Shown: in pieces, positions 8,703 through 48,441 of the stretch
Numbering within the stretch: the stretch's first letter is position 1
How the letters are laid out: each line of letters opens with the position of its first letter
Source of the DNA: Candidatus Weimeria bifida
Lineage (GTDB): Bacteria; Bacillota; Clostridia; Lachnospirales; Lachnospiraceae
DNA length: 64,000 bases
NCBI GenBank assembly: GCA_009493715.1
Contig: VOGC01000009.1
Coordinates: forward strand, 57,010-121,009
Direction: 5' to 3'
Notes under the pieces: generated by a model
What the model was told of the DNA's origin: nothing
Database searches by the model: none
Seen by the model: only the letters and a program-made list of their open reading frames with translations
Program-made: the position numbers and the translations under genes

Positions 8703-10460
8703 ATGAGAATAACCAACAATATGATATTGCATAACGCTGCATCAAACATAAACAGCAATAAGATCTTAGTCGACCAGGGTGAGAATCAGATGACCACACA
8801 GACGAAGATCCAGCGTCCGTCGGATGACCCGGTAGTCGCTGTCAGGTCTCTTTCACTCCAGACGAGACTTTCAAAGATCAATCAGTACTACGAGACAAAT
8901 ATCCCTGATGCTGAAGAGTGGATGAACGTCACCGAGACAGCTCTGAACAATATCATTGAAAATATCACCGACCTGAAGAAATACTGCGTTCAGGGTTCTA
9001 CAGGTACGATGCAGCAGGACGACAGGAAAACTATCCTCCAGCAGCTCGAAGCTCTCCAGAAGTCGATCTTCGCACAGGGAAACGCAGACTATGCCGGCCG
9101 TACTGTCTTCACAGGATACCGCACAGACAAGACCCTAGTCTTCACCGATGCCGACTGCGACAAGAAGTACAACATCACTCAGGAGCTTTCGGCAAACGAC
9201 TTCGAGAAGGTCAAGTATTTCAACCACAACGTAGAGGTTCCTTCCAATGCCAGTGAAGTGAATAAACTAGACAGCTCCAACGCACTTACAAAGGATGATA
9301 TCACGATTCAGGACTCTTCATACAAGAGGCTTCGCCTCGGATACGATAATATTTCTGATGTGGAGAGTCTCGTATTTTCATACAAGAACACAAGTGGAGA
9401 AACTGTTTCGAATACCTTTCAATTTGTAGTACAGGATGAGAAAAGAATCCCGCCTCTTGCAAAAGCTGATACCAGTGGAAATCTCACATATGGCAGCACC
9501 AAACAATCTACTTCGAGGTCAGTTAAGGATACGGCCGGCAATACCAACACAATTAATTATGATTATTATACGGTATCGGGATCTACATCAGGTGCAGAGC
9601 CTAAGACAGTATATGTTTTTGAGAATGAAGCCGACTGGGCAGGCTGGAGCGCTGATAAGCAAGGTAAGCAGACAAAGTACGTTCCGGACGATGCAGCTGT
9701 CCTTATAAAAGAGACTGGCGATATTGTCTTTGGAAAAGGTGCTTCTGATGATATGTCAGCAAAGGAGACGGCGGTTTCTGTCAATTACGATAAGAACTCT
9801 TTTTCAGCTGGTGAGCTGAAGCCGGAGTACTATTACGACTGCGTTGACAATACCGGTGTAAATTACAGCGATCTCGATGGAACGGTTGGCAGCAGGCTCG
9901 TTTACAACAGATCGGATATTTCATACGATATCAATTACACGGTGGCTGTAAATCAGACACTTACTGTAAACCTCCAGGCAAATGAGATATTTGACTCATC
10001 TGTTCAGCAGGATATGAAGGACCTTACTTCCGTTATCACGAATACGCAGAATGCGTATGAGAAGCGCGAGAAGATTTCAGCACTGATGAAGGACTCGGAT
10101 TATCAGGGTTCTGAAACACAGAAGAAACTTTCAGAGTGGTACACAGCTGCGAGCAAGGAATACGACTACTACAAGGACTACATGCAGGACGAATTCGAGA
10201 GAGTTCTTGGAAACTGCGACACTTACCTGAATAAGGCAAATCTCGCCGAGACCACACTCGGATGCCGCGGAGATGAGCTTTCGATGACAAAGACTAGAAT
10301 GGATGAGCAGCAGGAGTCAGTTACCGACTTAAAGAGCAAGAACGACAACCTCGACCTGTCGACTATTATGATGAATTATACGGCGTACTACACTGCCTAC
10401 CAGGCATCGCTTGTGGCAGCAGGAAAGCTTGGCCAGCAGTCGCTTCTGAACTATATCTGA
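8703..10460 (+). CDS. flgL: Flagellar hook-associated protein 3 FlgL
   Basis: MRITNNM start, KIQRPSDDPV motif, C-terminal YQASL...QQSLLNYI. Confidence 0.92.
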   Translation: MRITNNMILHNAASNINSNKILVDQGENQMTTQTKIQRPSDDPVVAVRSLSLQTRLSKINQYYETNIPDAEEWMNVTETALNNIIENITDLKKYCVQGSTGTMQQDDRKTILQQLEALQKSIFAQGNADYAGRTVFTGYRTDKTLVFTDADCDKKYNITQELSANDFEKVKYFNHNVEVPSNASEVNKLDSSNALTKDDITIQDSSYKRLRLGYDNISDVESLVFSYKNTSGETVSNTFQFVVQDEKRIPPLAKADTSGNLTYGSTKQSTSRSVKDTAGNTNTINYDYYTVSGSTSGAEPKTVYVFENEADWAGWSADKQGKQTKYVPDDAAVLIKETGDIVFGKGASDDMSAKETAVSVNYDKNSFSAGELKPEYYYDCVDNTGVNYSDLDGTVGSRLVYNRSDISYDINYTVAVNQTLTVNLQANEIFDSSVQQDMKDLTSVITNTQNAYEKREKISALMKDSDYQGSETQKKLSEWYTAASKEYDYYKDYMQDEFERVLGNCDTYLNKANLAETTLGCRGDELSMTKTRMDEQQESVTDLKSKNDNLDLSTIMMNYTAYYTAYQASLVAAGKLGQQSLLNYI

Positions 10461-20744: not shown

Positions 20745-20790
20745 GTATTAGTTGTGTATCTTTACAACTAATAATTCTGGAGGTTTTTTG

Positions 20791-21846
20791 ATGAGAAGGA
20801 ATAAAGCAGCAGTCCTCGTTTCTATGGCGCTTGTCGGCACCTTTCTTTTGAGCGGCTGCGCAGCGAAATCGAGTGATACACTTATAAATATTGACAATGG
20901 CAAGGCGAAGATTACATACGGATACGGCAACTTTGTAGCCAAATACAACCAGGCCACCTACGACCAGTACTATCTGCAGTACATGGGACAGAATTACTGG
21001 AGCCAGTCGCAGGGCTCGAAGACGATGGAGGAGACTGTAAAGGACAACGTCATCGACGGTATCGAAGAGCAGTATGTCGACAAGCAGCATGCCGGCGACT
21101 ACAATGTCAAGGTTACTTCCGAAGACAAAAAGAAGATAGAAGCGGCCGCGAAGAAATTCATTTCGAAGAATTCCAGCAAGGCCATCAAGCAGATGGGTGC
21201 GACTGAGAGCTATGTCAAGGACCTGCTCGAGTACGAGACATACCAGGCCAGAGTAAGAAATGCAGTCGAGGACAAGGCCAGTGTCACAGTCACAGACGAT
21301 GAGGCCAGGCAGTCAACAATCTCCTATGTATGTTTTTCAACGGCATCGACTACAGACGCTTCCGGTAATGCGAAGACTCTGACAGAAGCTGAAAAGCAGG
21401 ATATGAAGAAGAAGGCGGAAAACGTTGCCAACGCCTCGGATTTCGATAAAGCTGCAAAGGCAGCAGGCGGCAATGTTTCGACGCACTCCTATACAACAAA
21501 TGCCAAATCTTATGACAGTGATGTTCTTGGAAAGGACGTTATTAAAGCAGCTAAGAAGCTGACTAAGGAAGGCCAGATCTCTGATGTAATCTATGTAAAG
21601 AACAGGGGATATTTCGTGCTTCGCATGGATAAGCTTACTGACGAGAAAGCCACAAAGAGCAAGAAGAAAGATCTGACTTCTGAGAAGAAGCAGAAAGTAT
21701 ACGAGAAGCTGGTAAAGAAGTGGGTCAAGCAGGCCAACTTTAAACTGGACAAGAATCTCTGGGAACAGGTCAAATTTGAGGACCTCTTCACCGCCAAGAC
21801 AAAAAATGCCAGCGGAAACGCTTCCGGAAGTTCGATTTCCAAATAA
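20791..21846 (+). CDS. prsA: PrsA/SurA-like peptidyl-prolyl isomerase lipoprotein
   Basis: Signal peptide with lipobox LLSGC; parvulin-like TISYVCFST...GYFVLRM segment; Lys-rich helical domain. Confidence 0.75.
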   Translation: MRRNKAAVLVSMALVGTFLLSGCAAKSSDTLINIDNGKAKITYGYGNFVAKYNQATYDQYYLQYMGQNYWSQSQGSKTMEETVKDNVIDGIEEQYVDKQHAGDYNVKVTSEDKKKIEAAAKKFISKNSSKAIKQMGATESYVKDLLEYETYQARVRNAVEDKASVTVTDDEARQSTISYVCFSTASTTDASGNAKTLTEAEKQDMKKKAENVANASDFDKAAKAAGGNVSTHSYTTNAKSYDSDVLGKDVIKAAKKLTKEGQISDVIYVKNRGYFVLRMDKLTDEKATKSKKKDLTSEKKQKVYEKLVKKWVKQANFKLDKNLWEQVKFEDLFTAKTKNASGNASGSSISK

Positions 21847-26753: not shown

Positions 26754-27941
26754 ATGAGAATACTGTTTCTACGTTGGAACTGCTTCAATAGAGAATCGAC
26801 GGTAGAGGCGATGAAAAAGCAGGGCCATCAAGTCCTGCCTTTTTTTCACCGCGATTACAATCAGCTCGAGTCCGATGATTTCAAGGAATCATTTGCAGAT
26901 TTTGCAGAAGAAAATAAACCGGATATAACATTTTCCTACAACTATTTCCCGATTGTGGCAGAGTGCTGCCATGACCTGGGGCTTCCATATGTATCAGTTG
27001 TTTATGACAATCCGGCTGTCTATGTCTACTCGTATACGCTGATGTATCCGACGAACCACGTCTATATTTTCGACTCGCAGTGGGTAAGTGAATTCAATGC
27101 CGGAGGACTTAATAACGTACACTACATTACGCTTCCTGCTGATACCAGCCGGATGGACATGATAAAAAAGGACCACGAGAAAAAACACGCCTGTGATATC
27201 TCGTTTGTAGGTGCCTTATATAATGAGAGGCACAATTTTTACGAGAGGATGGAAGAAAACCTTCCGGAGTATATGAGGGGATATCTCGAGGGGCTTATGG
27301 ATGCGCAGTCCCTCGTGTATGGATCTGATATCATTAAGCCTGCCTTGAATGGAGAAGTCATTGCTGCCTTAAGGAAGGCCTTACCGGTATTCCCGGACAA
27401 GCTCTCGGTAGAGCCGGACAACTACAGATTCTTAAAATATGTGATCGGGAGAAAACAGACGAGTCGTGAGAGGATAAAGTATCTGACTGCAATCGGGAAA
27501 GACCACAGGGTCGATCTCTACACTTTAGATGATACGGCTGAGATACCGGGAGTAATTAATCACGGAGTCGCGGACTACGACTACGACATGCCGCTGGTAT
27601 TCGCCCAGAGCAGAATTAATCTGAATATTACTCTAAGGAGCATTGATACCGGAATCCCGCAGCGCTGCATGGATATCATGAGCTGTGGTGGATTTCTTCT
27701 GACAAATTATCAGGCTGATTTTTCACTCGATACGGTAAGCAGTGACGGCTCAGCAGCATTTGTGCCGGGGGTCGATTACGACTTTTACTCGAGTACTGAT
27801 GAGCTGATTGAAAAGGTCGATTACTATTTAAGTCACGAAGAAGAGAGGGCGCAGATTGCTGAGAATGGATTTAAGAAAGTAAAGAAGTACTATTCGATCG
27901 ATTCATTCCTGCACCGGATCCTCGATGAATTTTTAAAATGA
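26754..27941 (+). CDS. CgeB/DUF3880-like glycosyltransferase (copy 1)
   Basis: FSYNYFP, ISFVGALY, SRINLNITLRSIDTGIPQRCMDIMSCGGFLLTNYQ. Confidence 0.82.
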   Translation: MRILFLRWNCFNRESTVEAMKKQGHQVLPFFHRDYNQLESDDFKESFADFAEENKPDITFSYNYFPIVAECCHDLGLPYVSVVYDNPAVYVYSYTLMYPTNHVYIFDSQWVSEFNAGGLNNVHYITLPADTSRMDMIKKDHEKKHACDISFVGALYNERHNFYERMEENLPEYMRGYLEGLMDAQSLVYGSDIIKPALNGEVIAALRKALPVFPDKLSVEPDNYRFLKYVIGRKQTSRERIKYLTAIGKDHRVDLYTLDDTAEIPGVINHGVADYDYDMPLVFAQSRINLNITLRSIDTGIPQRCMDIMSCGGFLLTNYQADFSLDTVSSDGSAAFVPGVDYDFYSSTDELIEKVDYYLSHEEERAQIAENGFKKVKKYYSIDSFLHRILDEFLK

Positions 27942-29114
27942 AAAAGCGGTGTACAAGAGCTTCTGCATGATGGTCTCGTAGGTGTAATTGTTTTTTGTTT
28001 TCTCAAAGCCGGCGTACGCGATCTCACGGCGCCGCTCATCGTGTTCGAGGTAGTAGGCGCAGAGGCCGCGCAGCTCGTCAAGGCTTTCATACATGACGAT
28101 CTCCTCACCTGGAACGAAGAGTTCAGGGATCTCTTCCTGATAGTTTGAGATGCAGAATCCACCGCAGGATGTGATATCAAAAATCCTCTGAGGAAGCCCG
28201 GTACGGATCGTCTTCGAGGTCGTATTTATATTTATTTTGGATTCATGAAAAATGATCGGCATCTCTTCAAGGGATTTCGCGAGTCCGAGATTGTGAATCT
28301 TTGGCATCCCCGAGGTATCAGACCCAGTATAGATCGATGTGTCGAAGTGTTCTGAGAGCATTTTGAAAGTGTCGTCACGCTCTATCGCAGTGACAGCGTT
28401 TCCGAGGTACTCCTGTGCGACTGTCCGCTTATCTGTAAGAAAACTTCCTTCCGGAGCATATGGAAAATTCGGAAGAGCGTTTTTTATCTCCTTTGTGATC
28501 TCATCGGTCAGAAGATCTTCGATGAAAAAATATCCATAGACTGACTCCTGTGCTTTTAAAATTCCGTCGATATATCCGGCGGTGTGCATAGAGAGGCCTT
28601 TCGCACTCAGATGGTATGGATCCTTTTCGGAGTAGAGACTTCCGACGAACGCTATCTCGTGAGAAAATCTCTGCTTCTGTTCTTCGGAAGCGGAGTCTAT
28701 GACCTGCATCCTGCGCTTTACTGAACCGGCGAGCGGCAGATGAAAGACACAGTCGGGATTCAGTGGATGGATCTCGTTGTAGACAGCCCGGTCGAAGATA
28801 AAAGTCCTGTTGTATTTGTTTGTGATAGGACGGGTGTAGAGCTCGAGCACCGGCGCATCGACTACCCACGAGATATACCTCAGATGGTAGATATTCGCGA
28901 GCTCCGAGACATACGGGAAGAAATTGATCGAAAAGAGAAAGTCACACGGGTGCTTTTCAACGAACTCGTTTAATAGCTTAAGGGATGTGGAAGGATAGTC
29001 GTTCTTCACAGTGACTTCGCGGCTGTACTCTATGACTTCAATCCCGAATTCCTTGAATGTGGCTATGATGTCGGGCTCATTCAGGCTTCCATAGCGAACG
29101 AATATGACTTTCAT
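27933..29114 (-). CDS. CgeB/DUF3880-like glycosyltransferase (copy 2, opposite strand)
   Basis: FSINFFP, IAFVGSLY, SKININTTSKTIRTGLPQRIFDITSCGGFCISNYQ; RBS AGGAGG. Confidence 0.82.
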   Translation of the reverse strand: MKVIFVRYGSLNEPDIIATFKEFGIEVIEYSREVTVKNDYPSTSLKLLNEFVEKHPCDFLFSINFFPYVSELANIYHLRYISWVVDAPVLELYTRPITNKYNRTFIFDRAVYNEIHPLNPDCVFHLPLAGSVKRRMQVIDSASEEQKQRFSHEIAFVGSLYSEKDPYHLSAKGLSMHTAGYIDGILKAQESVYGYFFIEDLLTDEITKEIKNALPNFPYAPEGSFLTDKRTVAQEYLGNAVTAIERDDTFKMLSEHFDTSIYTGSDTSGMPKIHNLGLAKSLEEMPIIFHESKININTTSKTIRTGLPQRIFDITSCGGFCISNYQEEIPELFVPGEEIVMYESLDELRGLCAYYLEHDERRREIAYAGFEKTKNNYTYETIMQKLLYTAFSF

Positions 29115-29161
29115 ATGATTCCTCCTGTAAATAAATTCATTATATACTTAAAGAGCAGAAA

Positions 29162-30364
29162 ATGAAAATAAATTCTACAAAAAAGATCCTGGTCTACCGC
29201 TGGAAAGCCTATAACTACGACGACGTGATAGCCGCGTTCGAGAGAGCGGGCTGCGAAGTAAAGTGCATTGCCCAGAAACTCTTGAACTACGAGGTGAATG
29301 ACGACTTCGCTGCGGTTTTTGAAAAAGAGCTGGCGTCTGATAATTATGAATTCGTCTTTTCGATAAACTACTTTCCTGTCATCTCAGACATCTGCCAGAA
29401 AAATGGCATCGAATACGTCTCGTACAGCTGTGACAGCCCGCTGATTTCAATGTACCATGAGTCGGTATTCAACCAAGTAAACAGGATCTTTCTCTTCGAT
29501 GCTTTGGCTGTGGCCAATTTCAGGGCGATCGGTGCATCTCATGTCAGGTATCTTCCGCTCGGAGTCGACACTGCGCGTCTCGACAGGCTCTTCACATTCA
29601 GCTCTCCATTTAAGGAGGAGACTGAAAGGCTGCTCGAGCGCTCCCTTACTTTTGTAGGAAGCCTCTATGAAAAAAATTCCTATGATAAAATATCAGATAA
29701 GCTTCCGGAGTATCTGCGTGGCTACTTTGACGCTGCAATGCAGCTTGAAAGCGCACGATTCGGGACTGAGCATTTTTTCGATGAGATAATGACGCCTGAA
29801 ATCAGTGAAGAGCTTTTGGAGTGCGTAGATTTCGAAAAATCAGACCGCTCATTTTCAGACCTTCCGTTTGTCTTCTCAGTAACCTCACTCGGCTTCAAGT
29901 GCGCGCAGATCCAGCGGAAGCGGGCTCTTACTGACCTTTCAAAAAAGCACAGCGTCTGTCTTTTTACCGAGAGCGATACCTCTGATATTTTTTCTGTAAA
30001 AAATATGGGTGGAGTCGACTACAGGCTTATAATGCCATGGGTTTTCAGGAAATCGGCGATAAGCCTCAATTTTACTATTTCAAATATAAAGACAGGGATT
30101 CCACTTCGGGTCTGGGATGTGCTTGGTGCCAGGGGATTTCTTTTTACGAACCATCAGAAGGAACTCGATATTTATTTTAAGGATGGAGAAGATCTGGTCT
30201 GGTTTGACAGCGAAGAGGAGCTGATCGAGAAAGCGGACTTCTATCTTGATGAAAAAAATGCCTCCCTGCGGGATAAGATCTCGCAGAGAGGTTATGAAAA
30301 AGTCTCCACTTACCATACTTTCGATAACAGGATATCACAGCTTCTCGTCGATAAGGAGTCCTGA
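29162..30364 (+). CDS. CgeB/DUF3880-like glycosyltransferase (copy 3)
   Basis: FSINYFP, LTFVGSLY, SAISLNFTISNIKTGIPLRVWDVLGARGFLFTNHQ. Confidence 0.82.
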   Translation: MKINSTKKILVYRWKAYNYDDVIAAFERAGCEVKCIAQKLLNYEVNDDFAAVFEKELASDNYEFVFSINYFPVISDICQKNGIEYVSYSCDSPLISMYHESVFNQVNRIFLFDALAVANFRAIGASHVRYLPLGVDTARLDRLFTFSSPFKEETERLLERSLTFVGSLYEKNSYDKISDKLPEYLRGYFDAAMQLESARFGTEHFFDEIMTPEISEELLECVDFEKSDRSFSDLPFVFSVTSLGFKCAQIQRKRALTDLSKKHSVCLFTESDTSDIFSVKNMGGVDYRLIMPWVFRKSAISLNFTISNIKTGIPLRVWDVLGARGFLFTNHQKELDIYFKDGEDLVWFDSEEELIEKADFYLDEKNASLRDKISQRGYEKVSTYHTFDNRISQLLVDKES

Positions 30365-43908: not shown

Positions 43909-44673
43909 ATGAATGAAAAAGTATCTATTATAACGCCGTGCTACAACGGTGCGAAATATGTTGGGGAGACGATTGAGTCAGTGCTCGCCCAGGACTACAC
44001 GGACTGGGAGATGATAATCGTAAACGACGGCTCATCGGACAACTCCTGCGATATTGTCTCATCCTATGCGGCAAAAGATCCGCGGATTACTCTTATCAAC
44101 CAGCCGAACGGAGGCTCTGCAAAGGCCAGAAATAATGGCATTGAGCATGCGAACGGCCGATACATTGCGCTTCTCGACGCTGATGATCTTTGGAATCCGG
44201 ACTTTTTATCGTCGCAGGTATCATTTTTAAAAGAAAAAAATGCTGCGGTCGTCTGCTCAAGTTACGCTCATATCGACGCAGATTCAAAAGTCTTTGGAAA
44301 AGTGGACGTGGCTAAGCCAGTCATCACATTGAAGGATATGTATGTGATGAACCGGATAGGCTGCCTGACAGGGCTCTACGATGCCGGTACCTACGGTAAG
44401 GTCTATCTGAGAGAGGAATTGAAAAGCCTGAGAGACGACTACGCGTATTGGATAGACTGCGTCAAAAAGACCGGTGTAGCATATGGAAACCAGAAGGTAC
44501 TTGCCCGTTACAGGGTGCTTGACACCTCCACGACAGGCAACAAGAAAAAACTGATAAAGGTGCAGTGGCATTTTTACAGGGACTATCTGCACTTAAATCC
44601 ATTCAGGGCTTCGGCAAACCTCGTGCAGTGGGGGATTGCAGGCCTGAGAAAATTTGGGAATAGCAATGTTTAA
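43909..44673 (+). CDS. Glycosyltransferase family 2 (TuaG-like)
   Basis: SIITPCYNG, VNDGSSD, ARNNG and LLDADD. Confidence 0.92.
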   Translation: MNEKVSIITPCYNGAKYVGETIESVLAQDYTDWEMIIVNDGSSDNSCDIVSSYAAKDPRITLINQPNGGSAKARNNGIEHANGRYIALLDADDLWNPDFLSSQVSFLKEKNAAVVCSSYAHIDADSKVFGKVDVAKPVITLKDMYVMNRIGCLTGLYDAGTYGKVYLREELKSLRDDYAYWIDCVKKTGVAYGNQKVLARYRVLDTSTTGNKKKLIKVQWHFYRDYLHLNPFRASANLVQWGIAGLRKFGNSNV

Positions 44674-45508
44674 ATTATGTGAATTTCAGGAGCTCACTAT
44701 AACCCGTTTCAAGGAGTTCGGAGCTCTTTTAAGAGAAAATATCCACGATGAAAAAAGCGTCCTGCTTCCGCGGAAAGAAATCCCTGAGGGAGCAGAGATT
44801 GGTGAGCGGATCCGGGTTTTTATCTATTTAGACAGCAGGGACCGGCCAATCGCGACAACGGCCAAGCCGCTTATCACTTTAGACCAGGTAAAAGTTCTAA
44901 AAGTAAGCGATGTTACGAAGATCGGTCTTTTCCTCGACTGGGGTCTGCCGAAGGATCTGATGCTGCCGTTCCACGAGATTAATGGCCGCCCGGAAAAGGG
45001 CGATGATGTCCTGGTACGCCTCTACATCGACAAGTCCGGCCGTCCTGCCGCCACGATGCGCCACCTCTACCACTACCTGCGCACCGACAGCCCTTACCAG
45101 AAAGATGACACCGTAAGCGGCCGAATCTACGAGTTTGGTCACGACTTCGGTACATTCGTGGCTGTCGATGATATTTTTTCAGGTATGATACCGAGACATG
45201 AAGATGTTTCTTCTTATAAAATAGGTGACGTCCTCACCCTCCGTGTCACTGAAGTAAAGCCCGACGGCAAGCTCACACTGACCACCCGAAAAGACGCCTA
45301 CCTTGAGCTGGATGACGACGGAGCAAAGATCATGTCTATAATCGATTCGTACGCCGGTGTGCTGCCGTTTACCGAGAAGGCTTCCCCGGAAGTCATCAAG
45401 CGTGAGACAGGACTTTCAAAAGCTGCATTCAAACGCGCCATCGGGCACCTCTACAAGGAGCGTAAGATAACGCTCGAAGGTGGTCGGATCCGCAAAGTGG
45501 GTCAGTAG
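44666..45508 (+). CDS. cvfB: S1 RNA-binding domain protein (CvfB/YitL family)
   Basis: Tandem S1 repeats (GLFLDWGLPKDL) and C-terminal winged helix SKAAFKRAIGHLYKE. Confidence 0.85.
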   Translation: MFKLCEFQELTITRFKEFGALLRENIHDEKSVLLPRKEIPEGAEIGERIRVFIYLDSRDRPIATTAKPLITLDQVKVLKVSDVTKIGLFLDWGLPKDLMLPFHEINGRPEKGDDVLVRLYIDKSGRPAATMRHLYHYLRTDSPYQKDDTVSGRIYEFGHDFGTFVAVDDIFSGMIPRHEDVSSYKIGDVLTLRVTEVKPDGKLTLTTRKDAYLELDDDGAKIMSIIDSYAGVLPFTEKASPEVIKRETGLSKAAFKRAIGHLYKERKITLEGGRIRKVGQ

Positions 45509-45744
45509 GGACGGTTCTTTTTGTCCCATTTTTGAAATTTTCTGACAAATCAAACCGGCGCTGACACGTGATTATAGTTTCAGCAGGTGGCCACCCGGGC
45601 CGCCGCCAGCGCACACGTTTACGACGAAAAATCCTGAGGCCGCCAGCCCGTTTCAATCTGCGGCGCTGCTTCTTGATGCAGAGCCACCTGTGTTATCTCC
45701 GGACCCAGGCGGCAATTTTATGAAAAAAATTATTTGAGTGACAC

Positions 45745-45773
45745 TTGACAAACAACAGGTAGAATGCTAAATT
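45745..45773 (+). promoter_or_regulatory. Sigma-A promoter directed at trxB
   Basis: TTGACA-N17-TAAATT with an extended -10 TG. Confidence 0.7.
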
Positions 45774-45793
45774 AAATTGCGTACAATTTAATT
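45770..45793. promoter_or_regulatory. Palindromic operator overlapping the -10 (MarR/OhrR-like)
   Basis: AATTAAATTG-cgta-CAATTTAATT, a perfect 10-bp dyad. Confidence 0.55.
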
Positions 45794-45960
45794 ACAGTTT
45801 CTTGCTGTAAAATGACTCTATGGGAGATTACCATGGCCAATAAAAAATAGTTATACTTTGACACATGTATACCCGAATTACACTGCGGCAAGATTTTCTA
45901 AATTGTCAGATAATGGGACAAAAAGAACCGTCCCTGGTGTCCCAGGAAAGGAGAATTTTT

Positions 45961-46872
45961 ATGTATGATACAGTGATCGTCGGCAGCGGGCCGGCTGGAC
46001 TTACGGCTGGAATTTACGCGAAGAGAGCAGGACTTGAGTGTGTTGTGATCGAGAACACTCCGATCGGAGGCGGGCAGATCGCTACGACCGACAGAGTCGA
46101 CAATTACCCGGGGCTTCTCGGCGTAAATGGCATGGATCTCGGGATGAAGTTCAGGGAGCATGCAGAGAAGCTCGGCTGCGAGTTTAAAGATGGCCAGGTG
46201 GTAGAGATAGAGGATAAGGGCAGTGCCAAAATCGTAAAGCTTCAGGATGGAAGCGGGATCGAGACGAAGACCGTAATCCTGGCACTAGGTGCTGATCACA
46301 GACAGCTCGGTGTTCCGGGAGAAAATGAGCTTCGTGGAAAGGGAGTTTCCTACTGCGCGACCTGCGACGGAGCATTTTTCAGAGGAAAAGATGTAGCAGT
46401 TGTAGGAGGCGGAGACGTAGCTTTAGAGGATGCAGCGTTCCTTTCGAGGTTTGCCTCCAAAGTATATCTGATACACAGGAGAAATGAGTTCCGCGGAGCC
46501 AAGGCGTTAGCAGATGAGGCAGCTTCAAAGGAAAATGTTACATTTGTATTTGATACAATTGTAACAAAGGTTGACGGTGAAAATTCTGTTACAGGTGTAG
46601 AGACAGAGAACAAAAAGACCGGTGAAAAAGGGGCTATTCCTGTGAATGGAGTCTTTATGGCAGTCGGAACAAAACCGAATGTAGAGGGAATTGCGGGACT
46701 GCCTGAGGCCGATGAAAAGGGCTATATCACGGCCGGAGAGGACTGCGTCACAAGTATTCCGGGAATTTTTGTGGCAGGAGACCTTCGTACGAAGCAGCTC
46801 AGACAGGTCATCACAGCTGCAGCGGATGGAGCAAATGCAGTGACGAGCGTCCAGAAATACCTAAGTAATTGA
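45961..46872 (+). CDS. trxB: Thioredoxin-disulfide reductase
   Basis: GSGPAG, redox CATC, GGGDVA and FVAGD; RBS AAAGGAG. Confidence 0.96.
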   Translation: MYDTVIVGSGPAGLTAGIYAKRAGLECVVIENTPIGGGQIATTDRVDNYPGLLGVNGMDLGMKFREHAEKLGCEFKDGQVVEIEDKGSAKIVKLQDGSGIETKTVILALGADHRQLGVPGENELRGKGVSYCATCDGAFFRGKDVAVVGGGDVALEDAAFLSRFASKVYLIHRRNEFRGAKALADEAASKENVTFVFDTIVTKVDGENSVTGVETENKKTGEKGAIPVNGVFMAVGTKPNVEGIAGLPEADEKGYITAGEDCVTSIPGIFVAGDLRTKQLRQVITAAADGANAVTSVQKYLSN

Positions 46873-47040
46873 CGATAAAAATGAAACTATTTACGAAAAA
46901 ATAGTTTATTACGATGATATTTCAACTGGCACAATCGGTTGCAAATAAAAAATTACTGCCCGATAATTAGTGGCTGATGCGCTATTTTGCCCCAAAATAT
47001 GGCGATTTCGAGGATTTTTTACATAAATTTTTGAAAAAAC

Positions 47041-47092
47041 TTGACAAAAAACCTCTAAGAGTGTATAGTAACAATCGTAACAAATTTGTAAT
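47041..47092 (+). promoter_or_regulatory. Sigma-A promoter with a WalR-like direct repeat
   Basis: TTGACA-N17-TATAGT; CGTAAC-N5-TGTAAT at 47076-47092 versus the WalR consensus TGTWAH-N5-TGTWAH. Confidence 0.55.
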
Positions 47093-47133
47093 AAATTTTA
47101 AGTAGAATATAACAATTAGAGGAAAAAGTTTAA

Positions 47134-48441
47134 ATGAATCGTAATCGTAGAATTCAGGCAGCAGCAGCAATTACCCTTTCAGCAGGTATCATGTTTGCAG
47201 GAGCTTCAATCAATGCACAGGCAGCTCCTTTAGCAGGTGCATCCGCTACTATTCTTGAGGCATCAGCTGAGGATGCAGCATCAGGTAACGCTGCAGCACA
47301 GGTTACAGGTACAGGCTCGACTCTTTCAGGTGTCAGCAGAGTACTTGCAGAGACAGTTTCAGATACATCTGAACAGCTCGACGCGAAGGAGCAGCAGGCA
47401 GCAGATCAGCAGGCAGCTAAGGAAGCAAAGTATGATAAGCTCGCAGTCGCTAAGGTTTCTGATCATGCTAATGTCAGAAAGCATGCTAATGCTGACTCGA
47501 AGCTTGTAGGACTTATTTATAACAATAACGTAGGCCAGGTTCTTGATACAAAGAATGGCTGGACGAAGATTAAGTCAGGGGATGTTACAGGCTGGGTCAA
47601 GAACGACTACATCACAGTAGGAAGTGAGTCAGCTGTAAAGAGTGCCACTGTAAAGAAGGCTTCAGTAAAGACCACTACATTAAAGATCAGAGAGAAAGCT
47701 GATAAGAATTCAGATGTTGTGGATTTGATTCCTGGTGGTACATCACTTAAGGTATTAAGCACCAAGGATAAGGACTGGGTCAAGGTTCAGAGTGGTGATG
47801 ACACTGGTTATGTAGCAGCTGATTATGTTACAGTGAAGAGTACTTATCATTATGCTAAGACAGTTGAAGCTGTAAAGGCTGATAACCAGAAGAAAGAGAA
47901 CGCAAAGAAGGCAGCCGCAGCTAAGAAGGCCGCAGCCGCACAGAGAACGACTACTCAGACTACAAGAACTACTACAAGACATACTCAGCAGGCCGCAGCC
48001 GCTCAGACACAGACTACAGCACCTGCCAAGACACAGACTACAGCACCTGCCAAGACACAGAGTTCAGCACCAGCTAAGACATACAGTGCTCCTTCAGGTG
48101 GAAATGGAAGCGCAGTTGCAAGTTACGCTTGCCAGTTCGTTGGAAACCCATACAGATGGGGCGGCACATCACTTACAGGCGGAGCTGATTGCTCAGGATT
48201 CGTTATGAGCGTTTACAGCAAGTTCGGTGTTGGCCTTCCTCACTCATCAGGAGCAGACAGAGGCGTTGGCCGTGCTGTTTCTACATCAGATATGCAGCCG
48301 GGAGATATCGTTTGCTTCCCAGGTCATGTAGCTATTTACATTGGTGGTGGCCGTATCGTACACGCAGCTAACTCACGTTTAGGTATCATTACATCAAGCT
48401 TAAACTTTGGTTCGATCGTAGCAGTTCGCCGTGTACTGTAA
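47134..48441 (+). CDS. Secreted SH3b-SH3b-NlpC/P60 peptidoglycan endopeptidase
   Basis: Signal peptide; two SH3b repeats (ANVRKH..GW, LKIREKA..DW); Thr/Ala linker; PYRWGG...DCSGF...GHVAIY...HAA. Confidence 0.92.
   Translation: MNRNRRIQAAAAITLSAGIMFAGASINAQAAPLAGASATILEASAEDAASGNAAAQVTGTGSTLSGVSRVLAETVSDTSEQLDAKEQQAADQQAAKEAKYDKLAVAKVSDHANVRKHANADSKLVGLIYNNNVGQVLDTKNGWTKIKSGDVTGWVKNDYITVGSESAVKSATVKKASVKTTTLKIREKADKNSDVVDLIPGGTSLKVLSTKDKDWVKVQSGDDTGYVAADYVTVKSTYHYAKTVEAVKADNQKKENAKKAAAAKKAAAAQRTTTQTTRTTTRHTQQAAAAQTQTTAPAKTQTTAPAKTQSSAPAKTYSAPSGGNGSAVASYACQFVGNPYRWGGTSLTGGADCSGFVMSVYSKFGVGLPHSSGADRGVGRAVSTSDMQPGDIVCFPGHVAIYIGGGRIVHAANSRLGIITSSLNFGSIVAVRRVL
48004..48081 (+). repeat. 24-nt coding tandem repeat (TQTTAPAK x3) in the NlpC/P60 linker
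   Basis: acacagactacagcacctgccaag twice plus a degenerate third copy. Confidence 0.8.

Follow-up and report, generated by a model that had tools for sequence, protein, structure and literature searches.

At the junction of cvfB and trxB in Candidatus Weimeria bifida, promoter-like DNA lies between two perfect inverted repeats, which raises the question of whether this is an invertible switch or a segment bounded by two members of a dispersed repeat family. The locus lies in a 64,000-nt stretch of contig VOGC01000009.1 (hereafter the window). There, the 24-mer AGGGACGGTTCTTTTTGTCCCATT occupies positions 45507-45530 on the plus strand and its exact reverse complement positions 45912-45935. A search of the window recovered both arms at the positions that had been predicted, the left one overlapping the cvfB stop codon (TAG, 45506-45508) and the right one 9 nt upstream of the trxB ribosome-binding site (GGAAAGGAG, 45945-45953). 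No third copy of the 24-mer was found in the window at up to 3 mismatches, the chance expectation being 0. The arms lengthen to 33 nt at 91% identity (45498-45530 and 45912-45944) and are separated by 381 nt, and the additional match that had been reported just inside both of them is indeed present (TCTGACAA at 45541-45548 and TTGTCAGA at 45903-45910).

The original prediction proposed a phase-variable, invertible trxB promoter or, alternatively, two repetitive extragenic palindromic (REP) copies that flank or captured the promoter. Our results argue for the second proposal, since the repeat is linked to a REP-associated tyrosine transposase (RAYT) and the segment running from REP to REP is an insertion. 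We estimate at about 0.8 the probability that the arms are clostridial REP copies bounding a 447-nt inserted mosaic at a formerly tight cvfB-trxB operon, with a fixed orientation in the data seen. The identity of the arms over 24 nt would then be explained by the conservation of the REP core in the family, rather than by a dedicated recombination site. The two genes, the REP copies, and the segment that they bound are as follows.

44666-45508, plus strand: cvfB, encoding an S1-like RNA-binding protein of 280 aa; its 3' end is remodelled by the left REP
45498-45944, unstranded: REP-bounded mosaic segment of 447 nt, absent at the orthologous cvfB-trxB junction of three relatives
45498-45528, plus strand: left REP, 31 nt, made of the outer stem half TGGGTCA (45498-45504), variable GTA, GGGACGGTTCTTTTT (45508-45522), and the 3' stem half TGTCCCA (45522-45528); it encodes the cvfB codons V-G-Q plus the TAG stop
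45914-45944, minus strand: right REP, 31 nt, reading TGGGACA-CCA-GGGACGGTTCTTTTT-GTCCCA on the minus strand and lying in the trxB 5' leader
45961-46872, plus strand: trxB, encoding a thioredoxin-disulfide reductase-like protein of 303 aa, with its ATG at 45961

Copy number and orientation of the arms

The public runs holding the locus are all bioreactor or digester metagenomes, stored as assembled contigs, and the eight DNA runs represent communities dominated by this organism. In these eight runs, word depth over the left arm (45506-45531) was 31-75 times that of the flanks, for example 51,325 vs 1,629 in run X2 and 328,927 vs 4,930 in run X10. Each run contained 130-160 contigs matching the arms at 90% or more. 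Because the depth of these additional contigs equals that of the flanks, we assign them to the same genome. Their non-matching ends are the flanks of repeat copies on the JGI contigs Ga0214925 and Ga0214927, which therefore belong to this organism. Counting the copies in the genome had been proposed as a check with the original prediction; pieces of one assembly of the organism, 184 kb in total, contain no fewer than 38 copies with the exact 20-nt core. Allowing up to 3 mismatches, the same 184 kb holds 41 copies, 32 of which are intergenic. The same-genome copies are arranged as 21 singlets, 8 '+ -' doublets, and 2 tandems. The runs with a low share of the organism (X17-X21) were considered as possible sources of relatives with an empty site and rejected, since what they contain are scattered fragments of this very organism.

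In an inverton, a recombinase encoded elsewhere would flip the 381-nt segment, turning trxB off and directing antisense transcription into cvfB. The geometry fits, with perfect 24-nt repeats 381 nt apart and an outward promoter-like site between them, and trans-acting invertases such as RecV of C. difficile exist. Yet the eight DNA runs contain no inverted junction and no strand-change joint (99% likeness, word depth 1,600-5,500), and every loose end in them is explained by another REP copy. Neither a strand-change joint nor a loose end of an inverted junction was found in three RNA runs, whose contigs are colinear from 45504/5 through trxB, and the twelve contigs on record that encode this TrxB are all colinear with the window. 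Since the orientation data consist of assembled contigs, an orientation too rare to be retained by the assembler would not show in them, and a rare inversion might be missed. The arms themselves also argue against inversion: they have tens of copies per genome, so that any recombinase using them as sites would rearrange the chromosome at large, and their tails differ in subtype, as would be expected of independent members of a family.

The original prediction had noted that the window encodes no recombinase, and our scan agrees with it. Invertons have a dedicated serine or tyrosine recombinase, usually encoded nearby. Pfam searches over the genes of 35961-56872 and over 28 mid-sized open reading frames (ORFs), 26 of them outside that span, yielded no recombinase family, in a scan that left out ORFs above 460 aa and short ORFs outside the span. 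With high-copy arms, a single orientation in the contigs, and no recombinase found, we regard a phase-variable, invertible trxB promoter as very improbable. A high-copy REP seen in one orientation, which the original prediction had named as the outcome that would speak against an invertible switch, is what the assembled contigs contain.

The repeat family and its transposase

Based on 150 distinct copies, the consensus of the family is TGGGACA-NNN-GGGACGGTTCTTTTTGTCCCA, and the REP unit spans 31 nt: TGGGWCA, 3 variable nt, GGGACGGTTCTTTTT, and GTCCCA. The unit is a short, imperfectly palindromic hairpin of the kind, about 20-40 nt long, that characterizes REP/RAYT systems; its stem is formed by the outer TGGGWCA and the 3' TGTCCCA. 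The GGGAC/GTCCC hairpin originally described in each arm does exist, but covariation favours the outer stem. In the 86 copies with a 3' arm other than GTCCC, full pairing is retained by the outer 5' motif in 21 cases and by the inner GGGAC in 1, with compensatory changes such as CGGAC/GTCCG, AGGAC/GTCCT, GAAGC/GCTTC, and GGTAC/GTACC. Because of this covariation, we take the outer motif to pair with the 3' arm and the invariant 15-mer to lie in the loop. An identical 15-nt loop across clostridial orders, together with a covarying stem, suggests that RAYT may recognize its DNA by a conserved code that is unlike the GTAG-guided one of Proteobacteria.

The spacing of REP pairs resembles that of REP doublets forming hairpins (REPINs) and of bacterial interspersed mosaic elements (BIMEs). 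Among neighbouring '+ -' pairs, 36/48 are spaced by 20-50 nt from start to start, and '- +' neighbours are never less than 90 nt apart. Widely spaced neighbours show the two orders about equally (12 '+ -' vs 10 '- +').

The exact core GGGACGGTTCTTTTTGTCCC was found in more than 119 metagenome stretches among the matches listed and in 59 reference-genome stretches. The reference genomes carrying it belong to Lutispora (including L. thermophila DSM 19022), Gudongella, Peptoniphilaceae, Clostridium thermobutyricum, Syntrophomonadaceae, and other Bacillota. The exact 24-mer is absent from the reference genomes, where the 20-nt core was matched instead. A model doublet gave no match in plasmid and phage collections, and the core sequence was not found in a literature search.

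We also observed genes whose 3' end is overlapped by a REP copy that provides the last codons and the stop, as is the case for cvfB here (45498-45508). In Lutispora-like genomes, REPs supply the stop of membrane permeases ending in ..GRFFLS.. Examples of REPs at gene 3' ends are found in L043 (102-992), L079 (8547-9428), L099 (7173-8054), L138 (3168-4058), and L153 (6733-7614). The orthologues with a REP in the same position suggest that such insertions may be old and inherited.

Clustering of the ORFs in the repeat-bearing loci revealed a family of proteins of approximately 255-290 aa under eleven locus identifiers. These correspond to ten distinct loci, because L038 and L149, which agree in length and in protein, represent a single Gudongella contig and were counted once. 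The genes always lie within 0-80 nt of a repeat and are mostly bracketed in the order '+ ... -', with copies at 148+ and 1023- in L038, 113+ and 992- in L177, 2857+ and 3841- in L054, and 1145+ and 2112- in L172. The proteins match Pfam Y1_Tnp (PF01797) with E-values of 1e-12 to 1e-15. Against NCBIfam REP_Tyr_transpos (NF047646, cutoff 80), one member scores 83.9 bits and another 74.9, which is below the cutoff. All members of the family share the His-x-His (HUH) motif and the catalytic Tyr in RYIHNNP, and the sole PDB match of its profile is TnpArep of E. coli (4ER8). There are at least 6,792 homologues, several of which carry the JGI name "REP element-mobilizing transposase RayT".

An eleventh distinct RAYT locus was picked from the list of protein homologues rather than by the repeat. 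It has GGGAACGGA-GGGACGGTCTTTTTC-GTTCC upstream of the gene and the inverse downstream. This variant REP, GGAAC...GGGACGGTCTTTTTCGTTCC, has the same core and a compensatory change in the stem. Hence, the search for a RAYT that had been proposed with the original prediction was successful in genomes other than this one, where RAYT genes adjoin the repeat and are mostly flanked by inverted REP copies. Judging from these sequence features, the repeat system has the defining properties of REP/RAYT.

RAYT genes lie at 4249-5106 in L003, 199-1029 in L038, 2903-3709 in L054, 1259-2032 in L172, and 1501-2346 in L190. In the clostridial RAYTs, the Y1/HUH domain is extended at the C-terminus by some 120 aa, in which helix-turn-helix families (PF13384, PF02796) were matched. 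Among the 120 listed homologues, P0147 was considered as the RAYT of this organism and rejected, since it comes from a rumen organism.

The insert at the cvfB-trxB junction

The organism corresponds to the Lachnospiraceae metagenome-assembled genome GCA_003862155.1, close to Candidatus Weimeria. Three relatives (P0007, P0022, and P0015) have the gene order rpoC, glycosyltransferase (GT2), cvfB, trxB, NlpC/P60. Their cvfB-trxB spacer is 25 or 14 nt long, vs 452 nt here. Homology with them breaks after ...CGC AAA G (45497) and restarts at the ribosome-binding site (45945), such that the extra DNA, 447 nt at 45498-45944, runs from outer REP end to outer REP end. The right full REP ends at 45944 and directly adjoins the trxB ribosome-binding site. 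The relatives' CvfB ends in ..IRKA* at 278 aa, whereas the protein encoded here ends in ..IRKVGQ* at 280 aa. The VGQ* is REP-encoded, and cvfB now closes with codons and a stop provided by the repeat. No direct repeat indicative of a target-site duplication was found at the borders of the insert. In more distant Weimeria genomes, cvfB is followed by a radical-SAM gene.

These data must be weighed against another history, in which two unrelated REPs inserted into an ancestral long intergenic region that held trxB's own promoter, so that the bracketing would be coincidental and nothing would have been delivered. The near equality of distant '+ -' and '- +' pairs (12 and 10) means that the orientation of the arms could be due to chance, and both the differing arm tails and the single-copy nature of the inner 220 nt agree with such a history. 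However, no remnant of the ancestral stop codon or spacer is found outside the REPs, homology breaks exactly at the outer REP ends where relatives have 14-25 nt, and the left 180 nt are a mosaic of REP and a second repeat, module B, that is known from elsewhere in the genome. We find two unrelated insertions unlikely and favour the insertion of a REP-bounded mosaic, whose other features are listed below.

45529-45549, plus strand: tail of a long-form REP singlet, TTTTTGAAATTTTCTGACAA; the same tail is found on other single copies (L023, L039, L091, L102, and others)
45569-45677, minus strand: module B, a second dispersed repeat, 80-86% identical to sequences that adjoin REP copies elsewhere in this genome, at no fewer than 6 places
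45738-45773, plus strand: two overlapping sigma-A-type promoter-like sites toward trxB, GTGACA-16-TAGAAT (45738-45765) and TTGACA-17-TAAATT with TG (45745-45773)
45770-45793, unstranded: perfect 10+10 palindrome AATTAAATTG-CGTA-CAATTTAATT, overlapping the -10 of the trxB promoter-like site and unique in the window
45903-45913, minus strand: tail of the right REP, ATTATCTGACAA on the minus strand; this tail subtype is also found in L002, L018, and L095

We read the insert as a mosaic in which a REP is followed by module B, by unique DNA of about 220 nt that carries the promoter-like sites, and by a second REP. The two REP copies face each other in the order '+ ... -' that is usual for the family and would have been multiplied by a RAYT, that is, by a Y1/HUH single-strand DNA transposase. 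RAYT-type single-strand transposition may have brought in the mosaic, whether in one piece or through insertions nested within an existing REP doublet. Two other origins were considered for the cassette and rejected: it is without protein similarity that would mark a decayed RAYT gene, and neither the 381 nt nor the whole element behaves as a miniature inverted-repeat transposable element (MITE), since the 429-nt unitig has the depth of the flanks and the inner 220 nt are single-copy.

Module B was found in L018 (both arms; 8726-8927 and 9575-9860), L108, L058, L002, L035, and L060, and word depth over 45612-45713 is 3-5x. It has no match in Rfam, and a search of 44500-47200 at E up to 1 returned only a spurious long non-coding RNA. 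It reads AAGAAGCAGCGCCGCAGAT..GGGC..CTCAGGATTTTTCG..GTGTGCGC..GGTGGCCACC and as a rule sits immediately inward of a REP copy, in many cases in inverted pairs, building long non-coding mosaic islands. One of these, at L018 8665-9914, is a non-coding island of 1,250 nt that has inverted REPs as bounds and B modules inward of each REP. It contains tandem AAGAAGCAGC..GCTGATACGCGCGC units at 9575-9650 and is flanked by an iron alcohol dehydrogenase (Fe-ADH)-like gene and a ptsI-like gene.

The consensus-spaced sigma-A-like site originally reported at 45745-45773 is present, and is overlapped by a further site at 45738-45765. The region holds 4 promoter-like sites, vs 0.9 +/- 0.9 in shuffles. RNA contig depth changes from 9 at the cvfB 3' end to 187 over the cassette and trxB in X6 and from 190 to 909 in X5, without a rise in X12; these depths are flat averages of contigs and as such weak, contig-level evidence. 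Transcription of trxB probably starts from the promoter-like sites of the insert, and its leader would then contain the right REP. The palindrome at 45770-45793 is a candidate operator for some regulator. It was rejected as the marker of a regulon, its lone loose match, in L102, showing no similarity beyond chance. We also noticed that X20, a run described as seawater metagenome, includes a 197-nt contig identical to 45692-45884 with a word depth of 224 and no other sequence of the locus, which has the appearance of carry-over or contamination.

Directly after the cvfB stop lies a terminator-like site, made of a hairpin (45508-45527) and the T-run ATTTTTGAAA, which may terminate transcription. 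One could then ask if the arms were domesticated for a role in RNA, the left one as terminator or 3' stabilizer of cvfB and the right one as leader hairpin of trxB, with pairing between arms in read-through RNA that might occlude the ribosome-binding site. Besides the terminator-like site, this would be in line with the T-rich tails of the repeat (four or more T in the next 8 nt in 16/38 same-genome copies), with the position of the right REP against the ribosome-binding site in a region that is paired in the minimum free energy fold, and with RNA contigs spanning the entire cassette. But the folds are no better than those of shuffles, with a z of -0.86 in the leader and of -1.3 to -2.3 in the arms, and such a role would be a consequence of REP insertion, not an alternative origin. 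We give it very little credence as an explanation of the locus.

Several observations weigh against interpreting the arms as REP copies around a RAYT-inserted mosaic. No second copy was found of the roughly 220 nt with the promoter-like sites, and the use of these promoters is argued from consensus matches and flat contig depths. Hidden Markov model searches of six-frame translations, which covered the window, the pieces of the assembly, and the other loci among the matches listed, found no RAYT of this organism, and the organism's contigs show no nucleotide match of at least 80% to a RAYT locus other than the REPs. The GGGAC/GTCCC hairpins of the arms are thermodynamically weak, with DNA folding energies of -3.6 to -5.6 kcal/mol and a z of -1.3 to -2.3. 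GTAG, which had been taken as a REP tag, does precede the left arm, the only place in the window where it accompanies an arm, but it is not a feature of the family (12/38 same-genome copies and 10/170 others). Finally, the closest relatives are just 82-84% identical in CvfB, a distance that accommodates either one insertion or a REP doublet that was split later.

A further step would be that the 447-nt mosaic was mobilized by RAYT as a unit, i.e., as a REPIN with cargo, and that, by bringing a regulated promoter with it, it released trxB from the cvfB operon. We consider this proposal tentative and rather doubtful. If true, clostridial RAYT/REPIN systems would rewire transcription units and not merely litter intergenic space.

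Two observations concern other parts of the window. At 26754-30361, three paralogous genes (DUF3880 and Glyco_trans_1_2) lie near flagellar FlgN, FliW, FlaG, and FliD-like genes, and may form a flagellin glycosylation cluster. At 20752-21843 lies an ORF of 364 aa without a Pfam family at E up to 1e-5.

Comparison with known systems

A promoter between perfect inverted repeats may be a REP pair, and hence a false positive for scans that detect invertons by repeat geometry. High-copy repeats should be masked in such scans. Here, a core-gene locus was rewired by repeats: the C-terminus and stop of cvfB were rewritten, the operon was split, and promoter-like DNA and a hairpin were placed ahead of the thioredoxin reductase gene. 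The family with the core GGGACGGTTCTTTTT is widespread in anaerobic Clostridia of digesters, rumen, and gut. REP and REPIN elements with RAYT (TnpA-REP) reportedly occur in E. coli and Pseudomonas, and to our knowledge REP/RAYT systems have barely been described outside Proteobacteria. Group 1 RAYTs are also present in Clostridia, with few flanking repeats (PMC5581495).

Like other REP/RAYT systems, the one described here comprises a short hairpin repeat in tens of copies per genome, mostly extragenic and frequently in inverted doublets. It also includes a Y1/HUH gene bracketed by inverted copies, with 4ER8 as best PDB match and a match to REP_Tyr_transpos. Proteobacterial REPs are largely species-specific. 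Unlike them, the repeat studied here is hosted by Clostridia, and its 15-nt core is identical over several orders. GTAG is not conserved in it, and the conserved part lies in the loop while the stem covaries. With their helix-turn-helix extension, the clostridial RAYTs are also longer (255-290 aa) than the 165 aa of E. coli TnpArep.

Three other kinds of elements bear comparison with this locus. The BIMEs of E. coli are similar in alternating REPs with short conserved modules, here the REP tails and module B, and in forming non-coding islands, of up to 1.25 kb in our case. Their function is defined by the binding of integration host factor, gyrase, or DNA polymerase I. The sequences and the host are unrelated, and the likeness is one of sequence layout. 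Invertible promoters, such as fimS, the invertons of Bacteroides, and the RecV switches of C. difficile, share the inverted repeats of 20-30 nt on either side of a promoter-bearing stretch of a few hundred bases. They differ in that the repeats are multi-copy here, one orientation was seen, and an invertase was not found. The Correia elements of Neisseria are promoter-bearing MITEs that are multi-copy as whole units and duplicate a TA target. The insert resembles them as an element with terminal inverted repeats upstream of a gene, which may supply a promoter and RNA-processing signals and rewire an operon. Here, however, it is the ends and module B that are repeated, the promoter part being single-copy, and target duplication is not visible. 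The REP/RAYT family of Clostridia belongs to the known REP/RAYT kind, and its more notable features are three: a core shared across orders with a covarying stem, a C-terminal helix-turn-helix, and the splitting of an operon with replacement of the stop codon.

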